NCBI RefSeq assembly: GCF_003018255.1
Contig: NZ_CP027440.1
Direction: 5' to 3' (one strand)
From: Escherichia coli
GTDB taxonomy: Bacteria; Pseudomonadota; Gammaproteobacteria; Enterobacterales; Enterobacteriaceae
DNA length: 64,000 nt
Below the pieces are notes generated by a model that saw only the letters and a list, made by a program, of their open reading frames with translations, was not told the DNA's origin and did not search any database. Positions within the stretch are counted from its first letter, which is position 1, and the number at the start of each line of letters is the position of its first letter. Of the stretch, positions 12,884 through 61,080 are shown one piece after another. Position numbers and translations under genes: made by a program.

Positions 12884-13737
12884 TCACACCATATCCAGCG
12901 CAGTTTTTCCTTTTGGTGCCGGATATGCCTTATCCAGCATAGCTAATTCCGCTGATGAAAGTTCGACCTCAAGCACAGCCGCATTTTGTTGGACATGGGT
13001 AATCGTGGCCGCTTTTGGAATCGCCATCACACCCTGATGGCTGATTACCCACGCCAACAATACTTGTGCCGCGCTGATATTGTGAGCATGTGCAATTTCG
13101 TTGACTACCGCGTTTTTTAACAGCCCATTGCGCAACCGCCCGGCCTGGGCTAACGGACTGTAAGCCATCACCGGCATCTGCTGTTTCTGGCACCAGGGAA
13201 GTAGATCGTACTCAATCCCTCGTGAACCGAGATGGTAAAGCACCTGATTAGTGGCACACTGATTCCCCCCGGCAGCTGCCAGAGTTCCTGCATATCGGCA
13301 TAATCAAGGTTAGAAACGCCCCAGCGGCGGATTTTTCCCTGGGCGATCAATTTTTCCATCGCTGCGACAGTCTCTTCAAAAGCGAAACTGCCAGACCAGT
13401 GTAATAAGTAGAGATCGAGATAATCAGTATTGAGACGGCGTAAACTGGCTTCGCATGCATTTATCGCTTTTTGCCCGCCAGCATTCCACGGATAGACTTT
13501 AGAGACGAGAAAGACGTTCTCACGCAGGCCGGTTAATGCTTCCCCAACCACCATTTCGGCACCGCCATCGGCATACATTTCGGCGGTATCAATGAGGGTT
13601 AAACCGAGTTCAATGCCCGCGCGTAGTGCAGCAACTTCTGTTTTACGCTGACTGGCATCTTCGCCCATATACCATGTTCCCTGCCCTATGGCTGGCAGTG
13701 AGACATCGCCACTAAATTGAATCATTTTTTGTTGCAT
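12884..13737 (-). pseudogene. yeaE: Aldo-keto reductase YeaE, disrupted by a frameshift (or sequencing error) in a C6/G6 homopolymer
   Basis: Two adjacent minus-strand ORFs in different frames (13168..13782 and 12884..13243) together cover one roughly 284-aa AKR; frames switch at the homopolymer at 13265-13270. Confidence 0.7.
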
Positions 13738-17043: not shown

Positions 17044-18339
<1,296 letters not shown>

Positions 18340-18344
18340 AACTG

Positions 18345-18376
18345 TCAGCCGGGTCATTATCGCCTGGCTGATTTTT
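18345..18376 (+). terminator. Possible terminator after yeaH
   Basis: tcagcc...ggctga stem followed by TTTTT; loop is long, so weak. Confidence 0.35.
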
Positions 18377-18485
18377 AGTTCACTGTAAATTATCTCATTT
18401 ATTACATACATTAGCTTACAATCGCTTTAAATATGACAGCATAACCTTTACACAATTTAGTTCCAGAAAACAATCATTCGGAAAA

Positions 18486-19961
18486 ATGATTCGGTCAACA
18501 CGTATTTCCCTGGGGTTATTCTTTAATTATTTTTTATCGTTAACGAAAATTGATCCTGGTCAAAACTATATATCTCTGCCATCAATAAAATCCAGCACTC
18601 ACATTGCTCTCCTTTTTATGGCTTCTATGGGTACACAAAAATTAAAAGCTCAAGGCTTTTTTATTTTCAGCTTATTGCTGACGTTAATTTTATTTTGCAT
18701 TACTACCTTATATAACGAAAACACGAATGTAAAACTCATCCCACAGATGAATTACCTGATGGTTGTTGTGGCTTTGTTTTTCCTTAACGCCGTCATTTTC
18801 CTTTTCATGTTAATGAAGTATTTCACTAACAAACAAATTTTACCAACACTCATTTTAAGCCTTGCATTTTTAAGTGGCCTTATCTATTTAGTTGAAACCA
18901 TTGTAATTATCCATAAACCAATCAACGGCAGTACACTGATCCAGACAAAGTCGAATGATGTTTCTATTTTCTATATTTTCCGCCAACTCAGTTTCATTTG
19001 TTTAACCTCGCTGGCGCTCTTTTGTTATGGGAAAGACAACATCCTTGACAACAATAAGAAGAAAACTGGCATTCTGTTGCTGGCGCTGATTCCTTTTTTA
19101 GTTTTTCCCCTTCTGGCACACAATCTGAGCAGTTATAACGCTGACTATTCTTTGTATGTCGTCGATTACTGTCCGGACAACCATACTGCGACCTGGGGAA
19201 TCAACTATACAAAAATATTGGTTTGTTTGTGGGCATTTTTACTGTTCTTTATTATCATGCGTACACGATTAGCCAGCGAACTATGGCCGTTAATAGCATT
19301 ATTATGTCTGGCATCGCTATGCTGCAACTTACTTCTACTGACTCTGGATGAGTATAATTACACCATCTGGTATATCAGTCGCGGGATTGAAGTTTCCAGT
19401 AAACTGTTTGTTGTGTCTTTTCTGATTTATAACATTTTTCAGGAACTGCAACTCTCCAGCAAACTGGCAGTTCATGATGTACTGACCAATATTTATAATC
19501 GGCGCTACTTTTTCAACAGCGTAGAGTCATTATTGTCGCGACCTGTTGTTAAGGACTTTTGTGTCATGCTGGTTGATATTAATCAGTTCAAACGCATCAA
19601 TGCCCAATGGGGACATCGTGTGGGTGATAAAGTGCTGGTATCAATTGTCGATATTATCCAGCAAAGCATCCGCCCCGATGATATTTTAGCGCGACTGGAG
19701 GGTGAGGTGTTTGGCTTGCTATTTACCGAACTCAATAGTGCCCAGGCAAAAATCATTGCGGAACGTATGCGTAAAAATGTCGAACTCCTGACCGGCTTTA
19801 GTAACAGATATGATGTTCCTGAGCAAATGACCATCAGTATTGGCACGGTTTTTTCAACGGGTGACACACGTAATATCTCGCTTGTCATGACGGAAGCAGA
19901 TCAAGCCTTACGCGAAGCGAAAAGCGAGGGGGGCAACAAAGTGATTATTCATCATATTTAA
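18486..19961 (+). CDS. yeaI: Membrane-anchored GGDEF-domain protein with degenerate active site (EGEVF)
   Basis: 491-aa ORF; AT-rich multi-TM N-terminal half; GGDEF fold with the signature replaced by EGEVF at 19698-19712. N-terminal start not independently verified. Confidence 0.85.
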   Translation: MIRSTRISLGLFFNYFLSLTKIDPGQNYISLPSIKSSTHIALLFMASMGTQKLKAQGFFIFSLLLTLILFCITTLYNENTNVKLIPQMNYLMVVVALFFLNAVIFLFMLMKYFTNKQILPTLILSLAFLSGLIYLVETIVIIHKPINGSTLIQTKSNDVSIFYIFRQLSFICLTSLALFCYGKDNILDNNKKKTGILLLALIPFLVFPLLAHNLSSYNADYSLYVVDYCPDNHTATWGINYTKILVCLWAFLLFFIIMRTRLASELWPLIALLCLASLCCNLLLLTLDEYNYTIWYISRGIEVSSKLFVVSFLIYNIFQELQLSSKLAVHDVLTNIYNRRYFFNSVESLLSRPVVKDFCVMLVDINQFKRINAQWGHRVGDKVLVSIVDIIQQSIRPDDILARLEGEVFGLLFTELNSAQAKIIAERMRKNVELLTGFSNRYDVPEQMTISIGTVFSTGDTRNISLVMTEADQALREAKSEGGNKVIIHHI

Positions 19962-20141: not shown

Positions 20142-21632
20142 ATGAAATTGCACCATAGAATGCTCCGGCATTTTATCGCCGCAAGTGTCATTGTGCTGAC
20201 ATCTTCCTTCCTTATTTTTGAACTTGTCGCCAGCGACAGAGCAATGAGTGCCTATCTGCGCTATATCGTGCAGAGAGCAGACTCCTCCTTTCTTTATGAT
20301 AAGTATCAGAATCAGAGTATTGCCGCGCATGTGATGCGCGCTCTCGCTGCTGAGCAGTCGGAAGTGTCGCCAGAACAGCGGCGCGCCATCTGCGAGGCTT
20401 TTGAGTCTGCCAATAATACCCATGGCTTAAACCTGACTGCCCATAAATACCCGGACTTACGCGGCACACTACAAACCGCATCCACTGACTGCGACACAAT
20501 TGTGGAAGCTGCAGCACTATTACCCGCTTTTGATCAGGCAGTGGAAAGCAACCGCCACCAGGATGATTACGGTTCAGGTCTTGGGATGGCCGAAGAGAAA
20601 TTTCACTATTATCTCGATCTCAATGACCGCTATGTCTATTTTTATGAGCCGGTTAATGTTGAGTACTTTGCGATGAATAACTGGTCTTTCCTGCAGTCAG
20701 GAAGTATTGGCATCGATCGCAAAGATATTGAAAAGGTATTTACCGGGCGTACCGTTTTATCGAGCATTTACCAGGATCAGCGTACTAAACAGAACGTGAT
20801 GAGTTTGCTGACGCCGGTATATGTCGCAGGGCAGCTAAAAGGGATTGTGCTGCTGGATATTAACAAAAACAATCTGCGGAATATCTTTTACACTCATGAC
20901 CGCCCTCTCCTCTGGCGTTTTCTCAATGTCACGCTAACCGATACCGATTCGGGGCGCGACATTATCATCAACCAGAGCGAAGATAATCTGTTCCAGTATG
21001 TCAGTTACGTCCATGACTTACCGGGCGGCATTCGTGTCTCGTTATCCATTGATATTCTTTACTTTATCACGTCTTCGTGGAAAAGCGTTCTGTTCTGGAT
21101 TTTGACGGCGTTAATTTTGCTGAATATGGTGCGGATGCACTTCCGTTTATACCAAAACGTGTCGCGAGAAAATATTAGTGATGCGATGACTGGACTGTAT
21201 AATCGCAAAATTTTAACCCCTGAACTGGAGCAGCGGTTGCAGAAGCTGGTGCAATCCGGTTCTTCGGTGATGTTTATTGCAATTGACATGGACAAGTTAA
21301 AGCAAATAAATGACACCCTCGGTCATCAGGAGGGGGATTTAGCGATTACGTTATTAGCTCAGGCGATTAAACAATCGATTCGTAAAAGTGATTATGCCAT
21401 CCGACTCGGTGGCGATGAATTCTGCATCATTCTTGTCGATTCGACGCCGCAAATTGCAGCACAACTGCCTGAACGTATCGAAAAACGTCTGCAACATATC
21501 GCGCCGCAGAAAGAGATCGGCTTCTCTTCCGGTATTTACGCGATGAAAGAAAACGATACGTTACATGATGCGTATAAAGCTTCCGATGAGCGTTTATATG
21601 TCAATAAGCAGAACAAAAACAGCCGTTCATGA
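20142..21632 (+). CDS. yeaJ: Diguanylate cyclase DgcJ (periplasmic sensor + GGDEF)
   Basis: Start at MKLHHRMLRHF gives 496 aa; intact RLGGDEF motif. Confidence 0.9.
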   Translation: MKLHHRMLRHFIAASVIVLTSSFLIFELVASDRAMSAYLRYIVQRADSSFLYDKYQNQSIAAHVMRALAAEQSEVSPEQRRAICEAFESANNTHGLNLTAHKYPDLRGTLQTASTDCDTIVEAAALLPAFDQAVESNRHQDDYGSGLGMAEEKFHYYLDLNDRYVYFYEPVNVEYFAMNNWSFLQSGSIGIDRKDIEKVFTGRTVLSSIYQDQRTKQNVMSLLTPVYVAGQLKGIVLLDINKNNLRNIFYTHDRPLLWRFLNVTLTDTDSGRDIIINQSEDNLFQYVSYVHDLPGGIRVSLSIDILYFITSSWKSVLFWILTALILLNMVRMHFRLYQNVSRENISDAMTGLYNRKILTPELEQRLQKLVQSGSSVMFIAIDMDKLKQINDTLGHQEGDLAITLLAQAIKQSIRKSDYAIRLGGDEFCIILVDSTPQIAAQLPERIEKRLQHIAPQKEIGFSSGIYAMKENDTLHDAYKASDERLYVNKQNKNSRS

Positions 21633-25815: not shown

Positions 25816-26841
25816 GTGTCAGATCAGATTATCGCCCGCGTCTCGCAATCCCTTGCCAAAGAACAGTCACTGGAAAGCCTGGTCCGACAGCTTCTGGAGA
25901 TGCTGGAAATGGTCACTGATATGGAATCAACCTACCTGACCAAAGTGGATGTCGAAGCGCGCCTGCAGCATATAATGTTTGCCCGTAACAGCCAGAAAAT
26001 GCACATCCCGGAGAATTTTACCGTCTCGTGGGATTACTCGTTATGCAAACGCGCCATTGATGAAAACTGCTTTTTCAGCGATGAAGTCCCTGACCGTTGG
26101 GGCGACTGTATTGCGGCACGCAATCTTGGCATCACCACATTTCTGAGCACGCCAATTCACTTACCGGATGGATCATTCTATGGCACGCTTTGCGCCGCCA
26201 GCAGTGAGAAGCGCCAGTGGAGTGAACGCGCGGAACAGGTTTTACAGTTATTCGCCGGACTGATTGCACAATATATTCAAAAAGAGGCACTGGTTGAGCA
26301 GCTGCGCGAAGCCAATGCTGCGCTGATTGCGCAATCGTATACCGACTCGTTAACCGGGCTACCGAATCGGCGGGCGATTTTTGAAAATCTGACGACGCTG
26401 TTTTCTCTCGCCCGACATCTTAACCATAAGATAATGATCGCGTTTATCGATCTGGATAACTTCAAATTAATCAACGATCGTTTTGGTCATAATAGTGGTG
26501 ATTTGTTCCTCATTCAGGTTGGCGAGCGCCTTAATACGCTCCAGCAAAATGGCGAAGTTATTGGTCGTCTCGGCGGTGATGAGTTTTTGGTTGTTTCACT
26601 GAACAACGAGAATGCGGATATTTCGTCTCTGCGAGAACGTATTCAACAGCAAATACGTGGAGAATATCACTTAGGTGACGTTGATTTGTATTATCCCGGT
26701 GCCAGTCTTGGCATAGTAGAAGTCGATCCTGAAACGACCGATGCAGACAGTGCCCTGCATGCTGCCGATATCGCGATGTATCAGGAGAAAAAACACAAAC
26801 AGAAAACACCTTTTGTCGCGCATCCAGCGCTACATTCCTGA
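25816..26841 (+). CDS. yeaP: Diguanylate cyclase DgcP (GAF + GGDEF)
   Basis: GTG start at VSDQIIARVSQ gives 341 aa; intact RLGGDEF. Confidence 0.88.
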   Translation: MSDQIIARVSQSLAKEQSLESLVRQLLEMLEMVTDMESTYLTKVDVEARLQHIMFARNSQKMHIPENFTVSWDYSLCKRAIDENCFFSDEVPDRWGDCIAARNLGITTFLSTPIHLPDGSFYGTLCAASSEKRQWSERAEQVLQLFAGLIAQYIQKEALVEQLREANAALIAQSYTDSLTGLPNRRAIFENLTTLFSLARHLNHKIMIAFIDLDNFKLINDRFGHNSGDLFLIQVGERLNTLQQNGEVIGRLGGDEFLVVSLNNENADISSLRERIQQQIRGEYHLGDVDLYYPGASLGIVEVDPETTDADSALHAADIAMYQEKKHKQKTPFVAHPALHS

Positions 26842-46743: not shown

Positions 46744-48342
46744 ATGCAAAAAGCACAACGGATCATTAAAACCTATCGCCGTAATCGAATGATTGTTTGT
46801 ACGATTTGCGCACTCGTTACGCTCGCTTCGACCCTGAGCGTGCGATTTATTTCACAGCGTAACTTAAATCAACAACGGGTAGTACAATTCGCCAATCACG
46901 CTGTAGAGGAATTAGATAAAGTACTGCTTCCCCTACAGGCAGGTAGCGAAGTCTTGCTTCCGCTGATTGGTCTGCCCTGCTCTGTCGCCCATTTGCCATT
47001 ACGTAAACAGGCGGCAAAACTCCAAACTGTGCGATCCATTGGCCTGGTGCAAGACGGCACACTTTATTGCTCCAGCATTTTTGGTTATCGCAATGTGCCC
47101 GTCGTGGACATTCTGGCTGAACTTCCTGCACCGCAACCACTTTTACGCCTGACGATCGACCGTGCCCTGATTAAAGGCAGTCCGGTTTTGATTCAATGGA
47201 CACCTTCAGCGGGCAGTAGCAATGCTGGGGTCATGGAGATGATTAACATCGACTTACTGACGGCAATGCTCCTTGAGCCACAACTGCCGCAAATCAGTAG
47301 CGCCAGCCTGACGGTGGGCAAACGGCATTTGCTCTATGGTAATGGGCTGGTAGATTCCCTTCCGCAACCTGAAGACAATGAAAACTATCAGGTTTCTTCG
47401 CAACGCTTTCCTTTTACCATTAACGTTAATGGTCCGGGGGCTACGGCGCTGGCATGGCACTATCTTCCAACACAATTACCGCTGGCGGTGCTGCTAAGTT
47501 TACTGGTGGGCTATATCGCCTGGCTGGCGACCGCTTACCGAATGAGCTTTTCCCGCGAAATCAATCTGGGCCTGGCGCAACATGAGTTCGAATTGTTCTG
47601 TCAGCCTTTGCTTAATGCGCACAGCCAGCAATGTATTGGTGTAGAGATTTTGCTGCGCTGGAACAATCCGCGTCAGGGCTGGATTTCACCGGATGTGTTT
47701 ATTCCTATCGCGGAAGAACATCATTTAATTGTGCCACTGACCCGCTATGTGATGGCAGAAACCATTCGTCAGCGCCATGTTTTCCCAATGAGTAGTCAGT
47801 TTCATGTTGGCATTAACGTCGCACCCAGTCATTTTCGCCGTGGTGTGCTGATAAAAGATCTCAATCAGTACTGGTTTAGCGCTCACCCGATTCAGCAACT
47901 GATCCTCGAAATCACCGAACGCGATGCCTTACTGGATGTTGATTATCGGATTGCCCGCGAGCTGCATCGTAAAAACGTCAAACTGGCGATTGATGACTTC
48001 GGCACCGGCAACAGTTCGTTTTCCTGGCTTGAAACATTACGTCCTGACGTGCTGAAAATTGATAAGTCATTTACCGCAGCTATAGGTTCTGACGCGGTTA
48101 ACTCGACGGTGACCGATATCATCATCGCGCTGGGGCAAAGACTGAATATTGAACTGGTGGCGGAGGGCGTGGAAACGCAAGAACAGGCGAAGTATTTGCG
48201 CCGTCATGGCGTGCATATTTTGCAAGGGTATTTGTACGCACAGCCGATGCCGCTACGTGATTTTCCCAAATGGCTGGCGGGCAGCCAACCGCCGCCCGCC
48301 CGGCATAATGGACATATCACACCCATTATGCCGTTACGTTAA
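46744..48342 (+). CDS. pdeD: c-di-GMP phosphodiesterase PdeD (CSS + EAL domains)
   Basis: Start at MQKAQRIIKTYRRN gives 532 aa; EAL-domain motifs. Confidence 0.9.
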   Translation: MQKAQRIIKTYRRNRMIVCTICALVTLASTLSVRFISQRNLNQQRVVQFANHAVEELDKVLLPLQAGSEVLLPLIGLPCSVAHLPLRKQAAKLQTVRSIGLVQDGTLYCSSIFGYRNVPVVDILAELPAPQPLLRLTIDRALIKGSPVLIQWTPSAGSSNAGVMEMINIDLLTAMLLEPQLPQISSASLTVGKRHLLYGNGLVDSLPQPEDNENYQVSSQRFPFTINVNGPGATALAWHYLPTQLPLAVLLSLLVGYIAWLATAYRMSFSREINLGLAQHEFELFCQPLLNAHSQQCIGVEILLRWNNPRQGWISPDVFIPIAEEHHLIVPLTRYVMAETIRQRHVFPMSSQFHVGINVAPSHFRRGVLIKDLNQYWFSAHPIQQLILEITERDALLDVDYRIARELHRKNVKLAIDDFGTGNSSFSWLETLRPDVLKIDKSFTAAIGSDAVNSTVTDIIIALGQRLNIELVAEGVETQEQAKYLRRHGVHILQGYLYAQPMPLRDFPKWLAGSQPPPARHNGHITPIMPLR

Positions 48343-55764: not shown

Positions 55765-55908
55765 TTAGATTGTTTTCTTCGCCCGCAGGCATAACATAGA
55801 TAAAACTGACACATTACTGCATGAGGCACCAATATAAGGCTCGGCAGAGAAGCGGTATTCAACGTCAACGTGTTTACTCAGGACTTCTTTACTGAAAATG
55901 CCACACAT
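55765..55908 (-). CDS. yobF: Small protein YobF (47 aa)
   Basis: Minus-strand ATG..TAA encoding [47 protein letters not shown], 12 nt upstream of cspC. Confidence 0.7.
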
Positions 55909-56534
55909 AAACAGAACTGTACCTCGTTTAACCCGAAATCTGTTATCACATACAACGTTAATTATGGCAAGCCATTTTTAAACATGTCTCGATCAGACGC
56001 ACAAATCTCGATACGTCTTCCACTTTTTTTGCACACTTATGCAACGGAATACGCGCCGATATATCATTGTGCTTAACCTTGCCAGTTCAGGCAGATACTT
56101 AAACTGACGTATTTTCTAACATAGTTCAATAAGTTCAGTTGTTCCAGGCCAGTGGGAGAAGTTATTACATAGTGCGTGCAATATCACATTTTCTGCTATG
56201 CAATGAATAAAAAGTTATATCACTTTTTCTCATAAAACAGTCAGTTAACGGCTATCGATCACCCCAAAGAGAAGTCAATCGCCAAAGGTATTGTAAATTT
56301 AAAATAAGAAAAATTGATGAATGCGCAAAAAAATCAAGAGAGAAACGTTTCGCTAATAAATAATACCACGCTTAATCACAAATCCGATGTAAACATCCTA
56401 ATAAATTAATGGGCTAAATATCTTTTTCTGATATCCCGTTACGCAAATAAATAATATGATAATTATTTGAAGTCAGACCAGAGTTTTAATTTGAAGCAGT
56501 TGCACCATGACAGTGCGTATAATCAGGATGAATT

Positions 56535-56562
56535 GAGTAACCCTTCAACGACGGGGTTACTC
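56535..56562 (-). terminator. Hairpin downstream of yebO
   Basis: gagtaaccc-ttcaacgac-ggggttactc, 16 nt past the yebO stop; no clear T-tract. Confidence 0.4.
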
Positions 56563-56577
56563 AAGATTGAGGAAGGA

Positions 56578-56865
56578 TTATCGTTCGGCGACCAGACGAA
56601 TAATATCTTCGTCTTCAACCGATTTTTGACTCTCAACGGTCTTTTTATCTGCTTTCTCAGGTTCGTTTGCTTCGCACAAACGACGTAACAGAGCATTTTG
56701 ACGTTTTTGCTGATCCAGCAACGCCTCAAGCAGTTCAATCTGTTCGTTAGTCCGTGAACTGGCACGATTGATAAAAAACCACAAGATAAGCCCGATAAAA
56801 AGAACCACCACCGATACAACCAAAGACGCAATGTTCATCACGCCTGAATTTACAACTTCGTTCAT
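56578..56865 (-). CDS. yebO: Membrane protein YebO
   Basis: 95-aa ORF with N-terminal TM helix and charged coiled C-terminus. Confidence 0.85.
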   Translation of the reverse strand: MNEVVNSGVMNIASLVVSVVVLFIGLILWFFINRASSRTNEQIELLEALLDQQKRQNALLRRLCEANEPEKADKKTVESQKSVEDEDIIRLVAER

Positions 56866-61047: not shown

Positions 61048-61080
61048 TAAAAAATCAGGCACAATTTCTTGTGCCTGATT
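61048..61080 (-). terminator. Rho-independent terminator of prc
   Basis: On the minus strand: aatcaggcac-aagaaatt-gtgcctgatt followed by TTTTT. Confidence 0.7.

Follow-up and report, generated by a model that had tools for sequence, protein, structure and literature searches.

The proteins described as the closest paralogues of Escherichia coli CdgI (YeaI) are DgcT (YcdT) and DgcX, which, like it, combine GGDEF output with a membrane domain of the MASE4 type (PMC5635695, PMC10459773) and have the same length and N-terminus in the family alignment. DgcT and DgcX keep the GGEEF signature and make cyclic di-GMP (c-di-GMP), whereas CdgI has EGEVF in this place, DIN instead of DID, and INA instead of IND. 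CdgI was called catalytically non-functional and was grouped with DgcT and DgcX by Cimdins-Ahne et al. in 2023 (PMC10459773). The purified His6-tagged GGDEF domain of CdgI binds c-di-GMP, its I-site being intact (PMC5635695, Sarenko et al., Fig. S4B), and the same study reports strong heteromeric two-hybrid contacts of this domain with several other GGDEF domains, toxicity of CdgI upon overexpression, and absence of detectable protein along the growth curve. Here we analyze the cdgI (yeaI) gene in a window of 64,000 nucleotides of E. coli contig NZ_CP027440.1 (assembly GCF_003018255.1), by which we mean the whole stretch of DNA under study, and compare it with its orthologues in other Escherichia and Citrobacter genomes.

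In the window, cdgI is the open reading frame 18486-19961 on the plus strand, with an annotated product of 491 amino acids. A 1.6-kb query from the window is identical (100% of the DNA) to the annotated cdgI of E. coli JNE23-011, and 5424 of the 5426 complete E. coli genomes have a match, which in 5408 of them spans 80% or more of the query. CdgI/YeaI of E. coli K-12 (b1785) has 98% protein identity, occupies the same slot between yeaH and dgcJ, and is identical in EGEVF, RPDD, and the MASE4 and GGDEF architecture. Compared by eye, the B2-type allele of the window differs from the K-12-like cluster representative (P0001) at nine residues (R3Q, L9M, N14K, A46V, G57S, V103I, I141V, N146S, and Q474K), none of which falls within the A-site (active site) or the I-site. 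The reading frame is thus the well-known cdgI of E. coli, a cyclase-like but inactive c-di-GMP binder that has already been published, and its recognition in the initial annotation restates textbook-level knowledge on a member of the E. coli set of 29 GGDEF/EAL genes, which matters little in itself. Possible novelty, in each case modest, is limited to a decay series of the A-site, the evidence that the gene start is annotated too far upstream, and the reinterpretation of a published FNR site as a class II promoter.

Taken as a whole, the data make it likely that CdgI is a MASE4-GGDEF regulator without cyclase activity that responds to c-di-GMP, with an FNR promoter located inside the annotated N-terminus and a product of 444 amino acids. 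In the proposed mechanism, CdgI would be an inner-membrane sensor of eight helices, from which an unbroken helix leads into a GGDEF domain in the cytoplasm; this domain would not synthesize c-di-GMP because its A-site reads EGEVF. The role of CdgI would most likely be that of a non-enzymatic regulator, and its GGDEF domain may contact the GGDEF domains of other cyclases and phosphodiesterases, as suggested by the published two-hybrid data. The gene, located in AT-rich DNA bound by H-NS, appears to be under purifying selection and yet almost silent in the laboratory. Its real promoter would be of the class II FNR type and lie within the annotated 47 codons, with translation from ATG 18627, and its expression would need low oxygen together with at least one further factor.

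The domain search supports the first part of this scheme. MASE4 (Pfam PF17158) matches amino acids 88-319 with an E-value of 1.6e-48 (profile positions 5-237 of 239), and GGDEF (Pfam PF00990) matches amino acids 328-485 with an E-value of 4.8e-45 along the entire profile (positions 1-161 of 161). For TIGR00254 the score reaches 123 bits (cutoff 37.4), and 45 GGDEF chains of the PDB match at E <= 1e-8; NCBIfam holds no model specific for CdgI, and its generic GGDEF domain model is the only one to pass the cutoff. MASE4 is rare, with 55 representatives at E <= 1e-3 among 1.84 billion cluster representatives, the full-length ones spanning 413-500 amino acids. Hydropathy together with AlphaFold models, computed from a 34-member MASE4-GGDEF alignment (mean predicted local distance difference test score, pLDDT, of 79.5), predicts eight transmembrane (TM) helices, in the models at amino acids 51-79, 87-114, 119-148, 152-180, 190-214, 239-260, 267-286, and 293-329, the last of which runs unbroken into the GGDEF domain in the models, and a short periplasmic beta-hairpin at 226-237. 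The distribution of Lys and Arg follows the positive-inside pattern and is consistent with a topology in which both termini are cytoplasmic. In a rare E. coli allele (protein P0002, 468 amino acids, 95% identical to the window protein), an in-frame deletion of 23 residues, FCYGKDNILDNNKKKTGILLLAL, flanked by two 'LAL' repeats, takes out a cytoplasmic loop and part of TM5.

The A-site of CdgI, encoded by GAG GGT GAG GTG TTT, differs from GGEEF in the first position (not Gly, but Glu) and in the fourth (not Glu, but Val), and thus fails the GG(D/E)EF signature of active cyclases. A regular-expression search of the whole protein revealed no second GG(D/E)EF motif. The initial annotation, which had described a GGDEF protein with a membrane domain, placed EGEVF at exactly this position, and considered cyclase activity unlikely, is borne out in these respects. 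The I-site, by contrast with the A-site, is intact: RPDD (RxxD) lies five residues upstream of EGEVF, the spacing expected of an I-site, and RxxD is kept in all ten orthologues. Within the 34-member MASE4-GGDEF alignment, RxxD is present in 29 proteins and GG(D/E)EF in 23. Examination of the positions equivalent to D327, K332, N335, D336, H340, D344, and R366 of PleD (numbering in part from Table 1 of PMC3484386) showed that CdgI keeps the GTP- and metal-binding residues D364, K369, N372, H377, D381, and R403, and has Ala in place of D336 and Asn in place of the second Asp of DxD. The entry for yeaI in the same table, 'KNAHDREGEVF', is consistent with the sequence read here.

Comparison of the orthologues demonstrates how the A-site has changed. 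In the Citrobacter orthologues (57-61% identity) the region reads RSxD-LLARL-GGEEF, an intact cyclase signature. In every Escherichia lineage compared, the first Gly is lost, and the motif then diverges: EGEEF in E. marmotae, EGEVF in E. coli and E. fergusonii, DGEVF in E. ruysiae, EGDVF in a divergent lineage labelled E. coli, EGNVF in E. albertii, and EGKRF in a further relative (64% identity), six different degenerate variants in all. The degenerate lineages also have DIN in place of DID and INA or INN in place of IND. Constant across these lineages are RxxD, the Arg before the motif, Gly in position 2, and Phe in position 5. When the window allele is paired with E. albertii, E. marmotae, E. 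ruysiae, or the divergent E. coli-labelled lineage, the Nei-Gojobori ratio of non-synonymous to synonymous substitution rates (dN/dS) takes values of 0.07-0.12 (MASE4 half) and 0.08-0.09 (GGDEF half). The combination of low dN/dS with a drifting A-site indicates that catalysis has been lost and that the protein is kept by selection. Judged from the sequences, this pattern is what an enzyme would show that has taken on another role in which its fold and I-site are still needed, and the series from GGEEF through EGEEF to EGEVF, EGNVF, and EGKRF with constant RxxD offers a clean natural example of the conversion of an enzyme into a ligand sensor.

Several observations concern the annotated start of cdgI. 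Among six E. coli alleles, codons 1-44 contain five non-synonymous and no synonymous polymorphic codons and show no third-position bias, whereas codons 45-491 contain four non-synonymous and 37 synonymous ones (Fisher p = 9e-5). An O157:H7 allele has ATT where the annotated ATG 18486 stands. The upstream frame is shut by a stop 10-23 codons before the conserved start in six of the eight relatives (E. albertii, E. marmotae, E. fergusonii, the further relative, and both Citrobacter species), and in the other two, E. ruysiae and the divergent E. coli-labelled lineage, it is open and has no ATG. The GC content at third codon positions (GC3) of codons 1-87 is 0.345 against an expected 0.567, and residues 1-50 have pLDDT below 50 in the AlphaFold model. 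ATG 18627 (Met48) does not vary among the 11 aligned sequences, and ATG 18618 (Met45) is a second possible start in Escherichia. In the family alignment, the match of 29 of the 32 homologues sets in at query residue 45-48, and orthologues are annotated at 444-448 amino acids. The annotation thus probably sets the start some 47 codons too far upstream; the conserved start would be ATG 18627, giving 444 amino acids.

The DNA that the annotation assigns to these codons contains two conserved elements. The first, TTGATCCTGGTCAA, agrees in nine of ten half-site bases with the FNR consensus TTGAT-N4-ATCAA and is the sole such match in the window, where 0.33 are expected by chance; relaxed matches with at most two mismatches number 54 against 37 expected and are uninformative beyond this single strong site. 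Among 14-nt stretches upstream of the start this box is the best conserved, with ten of 14 columns invariant in 11 sequences and variation confined to the four spacer positions, in a region where only 38 columns are invariant over the 287 nt upstream of ATG 18627, and it becomes a perfect consensus in three relatives, both Citrobacter species and the further relative. The second densest conserved block, 18582-18591, ends in TAAAAT or TAGAAT. The FNR box lies 22 bp upstream of TAnAAT, a spacing fixed across the aligned sequences. If TAAAAT is the -10 hexamer, the transcription start site (TSS) is predicted near 18598, which corresponds to about 1870497 in MG1655 (NC_000913.3), and the centre of the FNR box (18556.5) falls at -41.5, which is where class II FNR sites are centred.

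This box coincides with an FNR site already detected in vivo. Myers et al. 2013 (PMC3688515; Tables S5, S6, and S9) reported an FNR peak by chromatin immunoprecipitation (ChIP-seq and ChIP-chip) at 1868475-1868480 (U00096.2) and the motif TTGATCCTGGTCAA at 1868473 with a score of 15.15, labelled 'Within yeaI', and the ChIP signal at yeaI was stronger in an hns/stpA mutant. The correspondence with 18550-18563 follows from the coordinates of cdgI in MG1655 (1870385-1871860) and an offset between genome versions of about 1978 bp, inferred from the position of the SrsR box. We read the published site as promoter-proximal, not intragenic, and FNR as bound to it yet insufficient under the conditions tested. 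More tentatively, and with odds that we put somewhat short of even, the database start of cdgI would be wrong, its first 47 codons would be a conserved class II FNR promoter with the 5' untranslated region (UTR), and the 'within yeaI' peak would be a real activator site; in that case the 444-residue CdgI would regulate other GGDEF proteins specifically at low oxygen and under gating by c-di-GMP, and its inducing condition would be anaerobiosis or microaerobiosis together with relief from H-NS or with a co-activator such as AppY. The putative conserved FNR promoter and the proposed start would offer a direct entry to the conditions of CdgI expression within the c-di-GMP network of E. coli, and they may also explain poor behaviour of constructs and tags designed on the 491-residue annotation.

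A number of points weigh against this reading, some of them concerning the start and the promoter and others the loss of catalysis. No Shine-Dalgarno sequence is found before ATG 18627 or ATG 18618. In this strain 82 codons run without a stop upstream of Met45, with a P of about 0.02 by simulation (about 0.13 for 44 codons), and given this open frame a translated extension specific to E. coli may exist. The TSS near 18598 is itself deduced from the conserved -10, and the nearest anaerobically enhanced sigma70 ChIP peak, at about 18408 (PMC3688515, Table S2), is located some 190 bp upstream of it. Finally, Table S9 of the same paper lists no FNR-dependent change in cdgI expression in anaerobic glucose minimal medium.

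These points bear on the alternative that the annotated ATG 18486 is correct, that residues 1-44 or 1-47 are a lineage-specific extension, and that the FNR site is truly intragenic. Apart from the 82 open codons, this alternative is in agreement with a GGA located 3 nt before ATG 18486, with the sigma70 peak and promoter-like sites upstream of 18486, and with the 491 amino acids that the Prokaryotic Genome Annotation Pipeline assigns to the protein of E. whittamii and of most E. coli. It would, however, have to accommodate an N-terminus in which all five polymorphic codons are non-synonymous without third-position bias, a start codon that is ATT in an O157 allele, an equivalent frame that lacks an ATG, contains stops, or both in all eight relatives, and a low-confidence segment before the point where 29 of 32 homologues begin. 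In addition, the conserved 'peptide' pieces of the extension are exactly the FNR box and the -10. We therefore regard the 491-residue start as rather unlikely.

The remaining points against the reading of CdgI as a non-enzymatic c-di-GMP sensor concern its output and catalysis. As to output, the only contacts reported for CdgI are those with other GGDEF domains in two-hybrid assays (PMC5635695). The claim that YeaI is a cyclase reportedly originates from Sanchez-Torres 2011 and is considered here as cited in later papers. Among these, PMC6824119 cites a lower c-di-GMP level in a yeaI mutant, and in the secondary citations of PMC6824119 and PMC3484386 YeaI is said to raise c-di-GMP in BW25113, its cyclase activity being 'verified'. 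In strain CFT073, the yeaI mutant has reduced biofilm, and the cyclase WspR complements it in no-salt lysogeny broth (PMC3484386). Since most of the GTP-contacting residues outside the motif are also kept (K369, N372, H377, D381, and R403), CdgI might still be a (weak) diguanylate cyclase whose phenotypes arise from its own c-di-GMP. We consider this improbable, in view of Gly to Glu in position 1 and Glu to Val in position 4 of the A-site, the change of IND to INA, and the later work that classes the protein as catalytically inactive (PMC5635695, PMC10459773). Moreover, the A-site drifts freely in Escherichia (E/D, G, E/D/N/K, V/E/R, F) within an otherwise conserved domain, as expected of a site no longer in use, and in glycerol medium WspR fails to correct the biofilm defect of the CFT073 mutant (PMC3484386).

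Other mutant phenotypes add to the picture. Early biofilm and motility are increased in K-12 yeaI mutants, as cited in PMC3484386, and cdgI was a motility hit in ST131; the phenotypes are inconsistent between strains. Their occurrence in K-12, CFT073, and ST131 nevertheless argues against cdgI being a decaying remnant without function, an explanation to which we attach hardly any weight. Such a remnant would fit the loss of the catalytic motif, the undetectable protein in K-12 (PMC5635695), and the insertion sequence (IS) insertions and deletions of cdgI in some strains, including the deletion of the gene in S. flexneri 2457T. It does not fit the dN/dS of 0.07-0.12 over both domains across Escherichia species, the intact coding sequence in six of six E. 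coli alleles, or the 5408 complete genomes with a match over at least 80% of the query. The latter count also speaks against frequent pseudogenisation, a candidate raised by clusters of 281-345 amino acids with hundreds of members: the named members are mostly 'partial' sequences from draft assemblies.

The AT-rich composition of the locus is the remaining feature that calls for an explanation. Among the 64 annotated genes that map in full onto the window, cdgI has the lowest GC content (0.390; mean 0.501, standard deviation 0.039), with 0.363 in the codons of residues 1-319 and 0.444 in those of residues 320-491, and the six 600-bp windows of lowest GC in the 64 kb begin at 18251-18501. The anomaly that the initial annotation had noted in the N-terminal half is thus real, with the reservation that a part of it (18486-18626) is probably promoter and 5' UTR, not coding sequence. 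Partition of the deficit with the codon usage of the other genes of the window gave a GC content of 0.438 predicted from the amino acids of CdgI alone (genes of at least 600 nt average 0.514, standard deviation 0.025), and codon choice takes away another 0.047; the observed GC3 of 0.438 is 0.115 below the expected 0.553, or -2.5 standard deviations. Roughly 60% of the deficit is due to the amino-acid composition of a membrane protein rich in Leu, Ile, Phe, Asn, and Tyr, and 40% is synonymous. The orthologues in the same slot (E. albertii, E. marmotae, E. ruysiae, E. fergusonii, the further relative, and two Citrobacter species) are equally AT-rich, with GC contents of 0.356-0.392 against 0.47-0.51 for yeaH. 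The second lowest-GC stretch of the window, at 55900-56700 between yobF and yebO, has 600-bp windows with GC contents of 0.347-0.357.

A recently acquired foreign gene silenced by H-NS could have such a composition. The lowest GC content in the window, the departure of GC3 from expectation, the listing of cdgI as an H-NS-bound promoter island (PMC3661553), the rarity of MASE4 with its 55 cluster representatives, and the absence of the gene from S. flexneri would all be compatible with it. However, the slot between yeaH and dgcJ is filled in six named Escherichia species or lineages, in the further relative, and in two Citrobacter species, the equal AT-richness of all of these (GC content 0.356-0.395) shows that the composition is old and maintained, and about 60% of the deficit is accounted for by amino acids. 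We hold recent acquisition to be improbable and, in view of the synteny and AT-richness of all orthologues, reject it as the cause of the low GC. The coordinates of cdgI, its domains and motifs, its upstream elements, and the neighbouring c-di-GMP genes are collected in Table 1.

Table 1. Positions in the 64,000-nucleotide window of cdgI, its sequence elements, and other c-di-GMP genes.
Feature	Position	Strand	Remarks
Terminator-like hairpin of yeaH, then T run	18344..18372	+	End of the upstream unit; 11-pair stem with 6 G-C pairs; stem in 11/11 sequences
SrsR box aaAGgTTaTGC	18440..18450	-	Minus-strand reading GCATAACCTTT; PMC9181523, between yeaH and cdgI; placed by eye
Upstream sigma-70-like promoter match TTTACA-16-AACAAT (possible P1)	18447..18474	+	9/12 matches, no better than shuffles; published sigma70 ChIP peak at about 18408; weak
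Codons 1-47 of the cdgI annotation, probable promoter plus 5' UTR	18486..18626	+	Polymorphism, closed frames, conservation
FNR box TTGATCCTGGTCAA	18550..18563	+	9/10 half-site bases of TTGAT-N4-ATCAA
Putative -10 hexamer TAAAAT	18586..18591	+	TAGAAT in some relatives; 5/6 bases invariant in 11 sequences
cdgI, conserved coding sequence	18627..19961	+	Start at M48, 444 aa; M45 (18618) as a second candidate
MASE4 integral-membrane sensor domain	18636..19472	+	8 TM helices, short periplasmic beta-hairpin, last helix runs on into GGDEF
GGDEF domain, cytoplasmic	19467..19940	+	aa 328-485
I-site RPDD (RxxD)	19671..19682	+	aa 396-399; followed by ILARL, then EGEVF
Degenerate A-site EGEVF replacing GG(D/E)EF	19698..19712	+	aa 405-409; codons GAG GGT GAG GTG TTT
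dgcJ (yeaJ)	20142..21632	+	GAPES1 + GGDEF, intact RLGGDEF; adjoins cdgI in all relatives
dgcP (yeaP)	25816..26841	+	GAF + GGDEF, intact GGDEF motif
pdeD (yoaD)	46744..48342	+	CSS-motif + EAL phosphodiesterase

Several regulators besides FNR have been connected with the locus. SrsR was reported there (PMC9181523), as was RstA in enterohaemorrhagic E. coli (PMC6824119); overproduction of AppY raises cdgI expression by log2 5.1 (PMC10057817), and repression by CsrA is cited from earlier work in PMC5635695. A CsrA-type hairpin over the annotated start (AATCATT-cGGAaa-AATGATT, 18470-18489) was considered and found unsupported, as the fold of 18455-18505 has -3.9 kcal/mol and z = 0.47 relative to shuffles. 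A third conserved upstream block, ATCATTCGGAAAAA at 18471-18484, is common to E. coli, Citrobacter, and E. fergusonii; it precedes the predicted TSS by about 115-127 bp, and the hairpin it could form is unstable. Inside the gene, a sigma70 ChIP peak ('within yeaI', 1869297 in U00096.2) with a 26-fold anaerobic rise maps, by our coordinate conversion, to about 19330-19376, near the junction of MASE4 and GGDEF, and the AppY ChIP summit (1871229 in NC_000913.3) likewise maps there. A search for a conserved element under these internal peaks gave only ordinary promoter-like matches at 19330-19376, and six Escherichia sequences have no dip in synonymous variation in this interval (0.79-0.88 against 0.77 overall).

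The three further c-di-GMP genes that the initial annotation had placed within 30 kb, dgcJ, dgcP, and pdeD, are indeed present, all within 27 kb. Four such genes in 30 kb exceed a uniform scatter of the 29 K-12 genes, with a rough Poisson probability of about 0.03 after anchoring on each gene, which is arithmetic only. A degenerate GGDEF protein beside active enzymes had been taken as the typical layout of a c-di-GMP receptor or effector. This argument is not borne out here, since the order yeaG-yeaH-X-dgcJ-yeaK is also found in Citrobacter, where X has an intact GGEEF; the adjacency of cdgI and dgcJ therefore predates the degeneration, and the layout can be neither a result nor a hallmark of receptor function. 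The receptor part of the claim agrees with the published binding of c-di-GMP and the intact I-site (PMC5635695); the effector part is unsupported. The earlier conclusion, an inactive cyclase that likely senses c-di-GMP, is thus right and partly supported, its neighbourhood reasoning being weak.

Elsewhere in the window, yeaE (methylglyoxal reductase, 12884-13737 on the minus strand) has a deletion of 1 nt relative to the closest reference (854 against 855 nt), with the shift near 13260 and the frame switching after '...ELWQLPGG'; the gene is thus frameshifted, by either pseudogene formation or sequencing error. An IS200C copy (tnpA, about 700 bp) that the closest reference genome has between htpX and prc is missing from the window at 61049-61055. 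Beyond about 39.3 kb the identity to this reference is 98.5%, compared with 99.6% before, suggestive of a recombination mosaic.

In its putative promoter, cdgI resembles class II FNR-activated promoters, an E. coli example of which is pdeF (yfgF). This gene, likewise connected with c-di-GMP, also has an FNR peak in the tables of PMC3688515, and PdeF is anaerobically induced (PMC5635695). The box of TTGAT-N4-ATCAA type is the same, and its centre at -41.5 would be so too if TAAAAT is the -10; the difference is that FNR-dependent expression of cdgI was not seen in glucose minimal medium.

As a protein, CdgI may be compared with PopA of Caulobacter, PelD of Pseudomonas, and SgmT of Myxococcus, receptors with degenerate GGDEF domains that bind c-di-GMP through the RxxD I-site. 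Their outputs are, respectively, localisation and targeting for proteolysis (PopA), Pel synthesis (PelD), and localisation of the kinase (SgmT). CdgI is like them in combining an inactive A-site with a kept RxxD and differs from them in its sensor domain, MASE4; the resemblance would be one of functional analogy.

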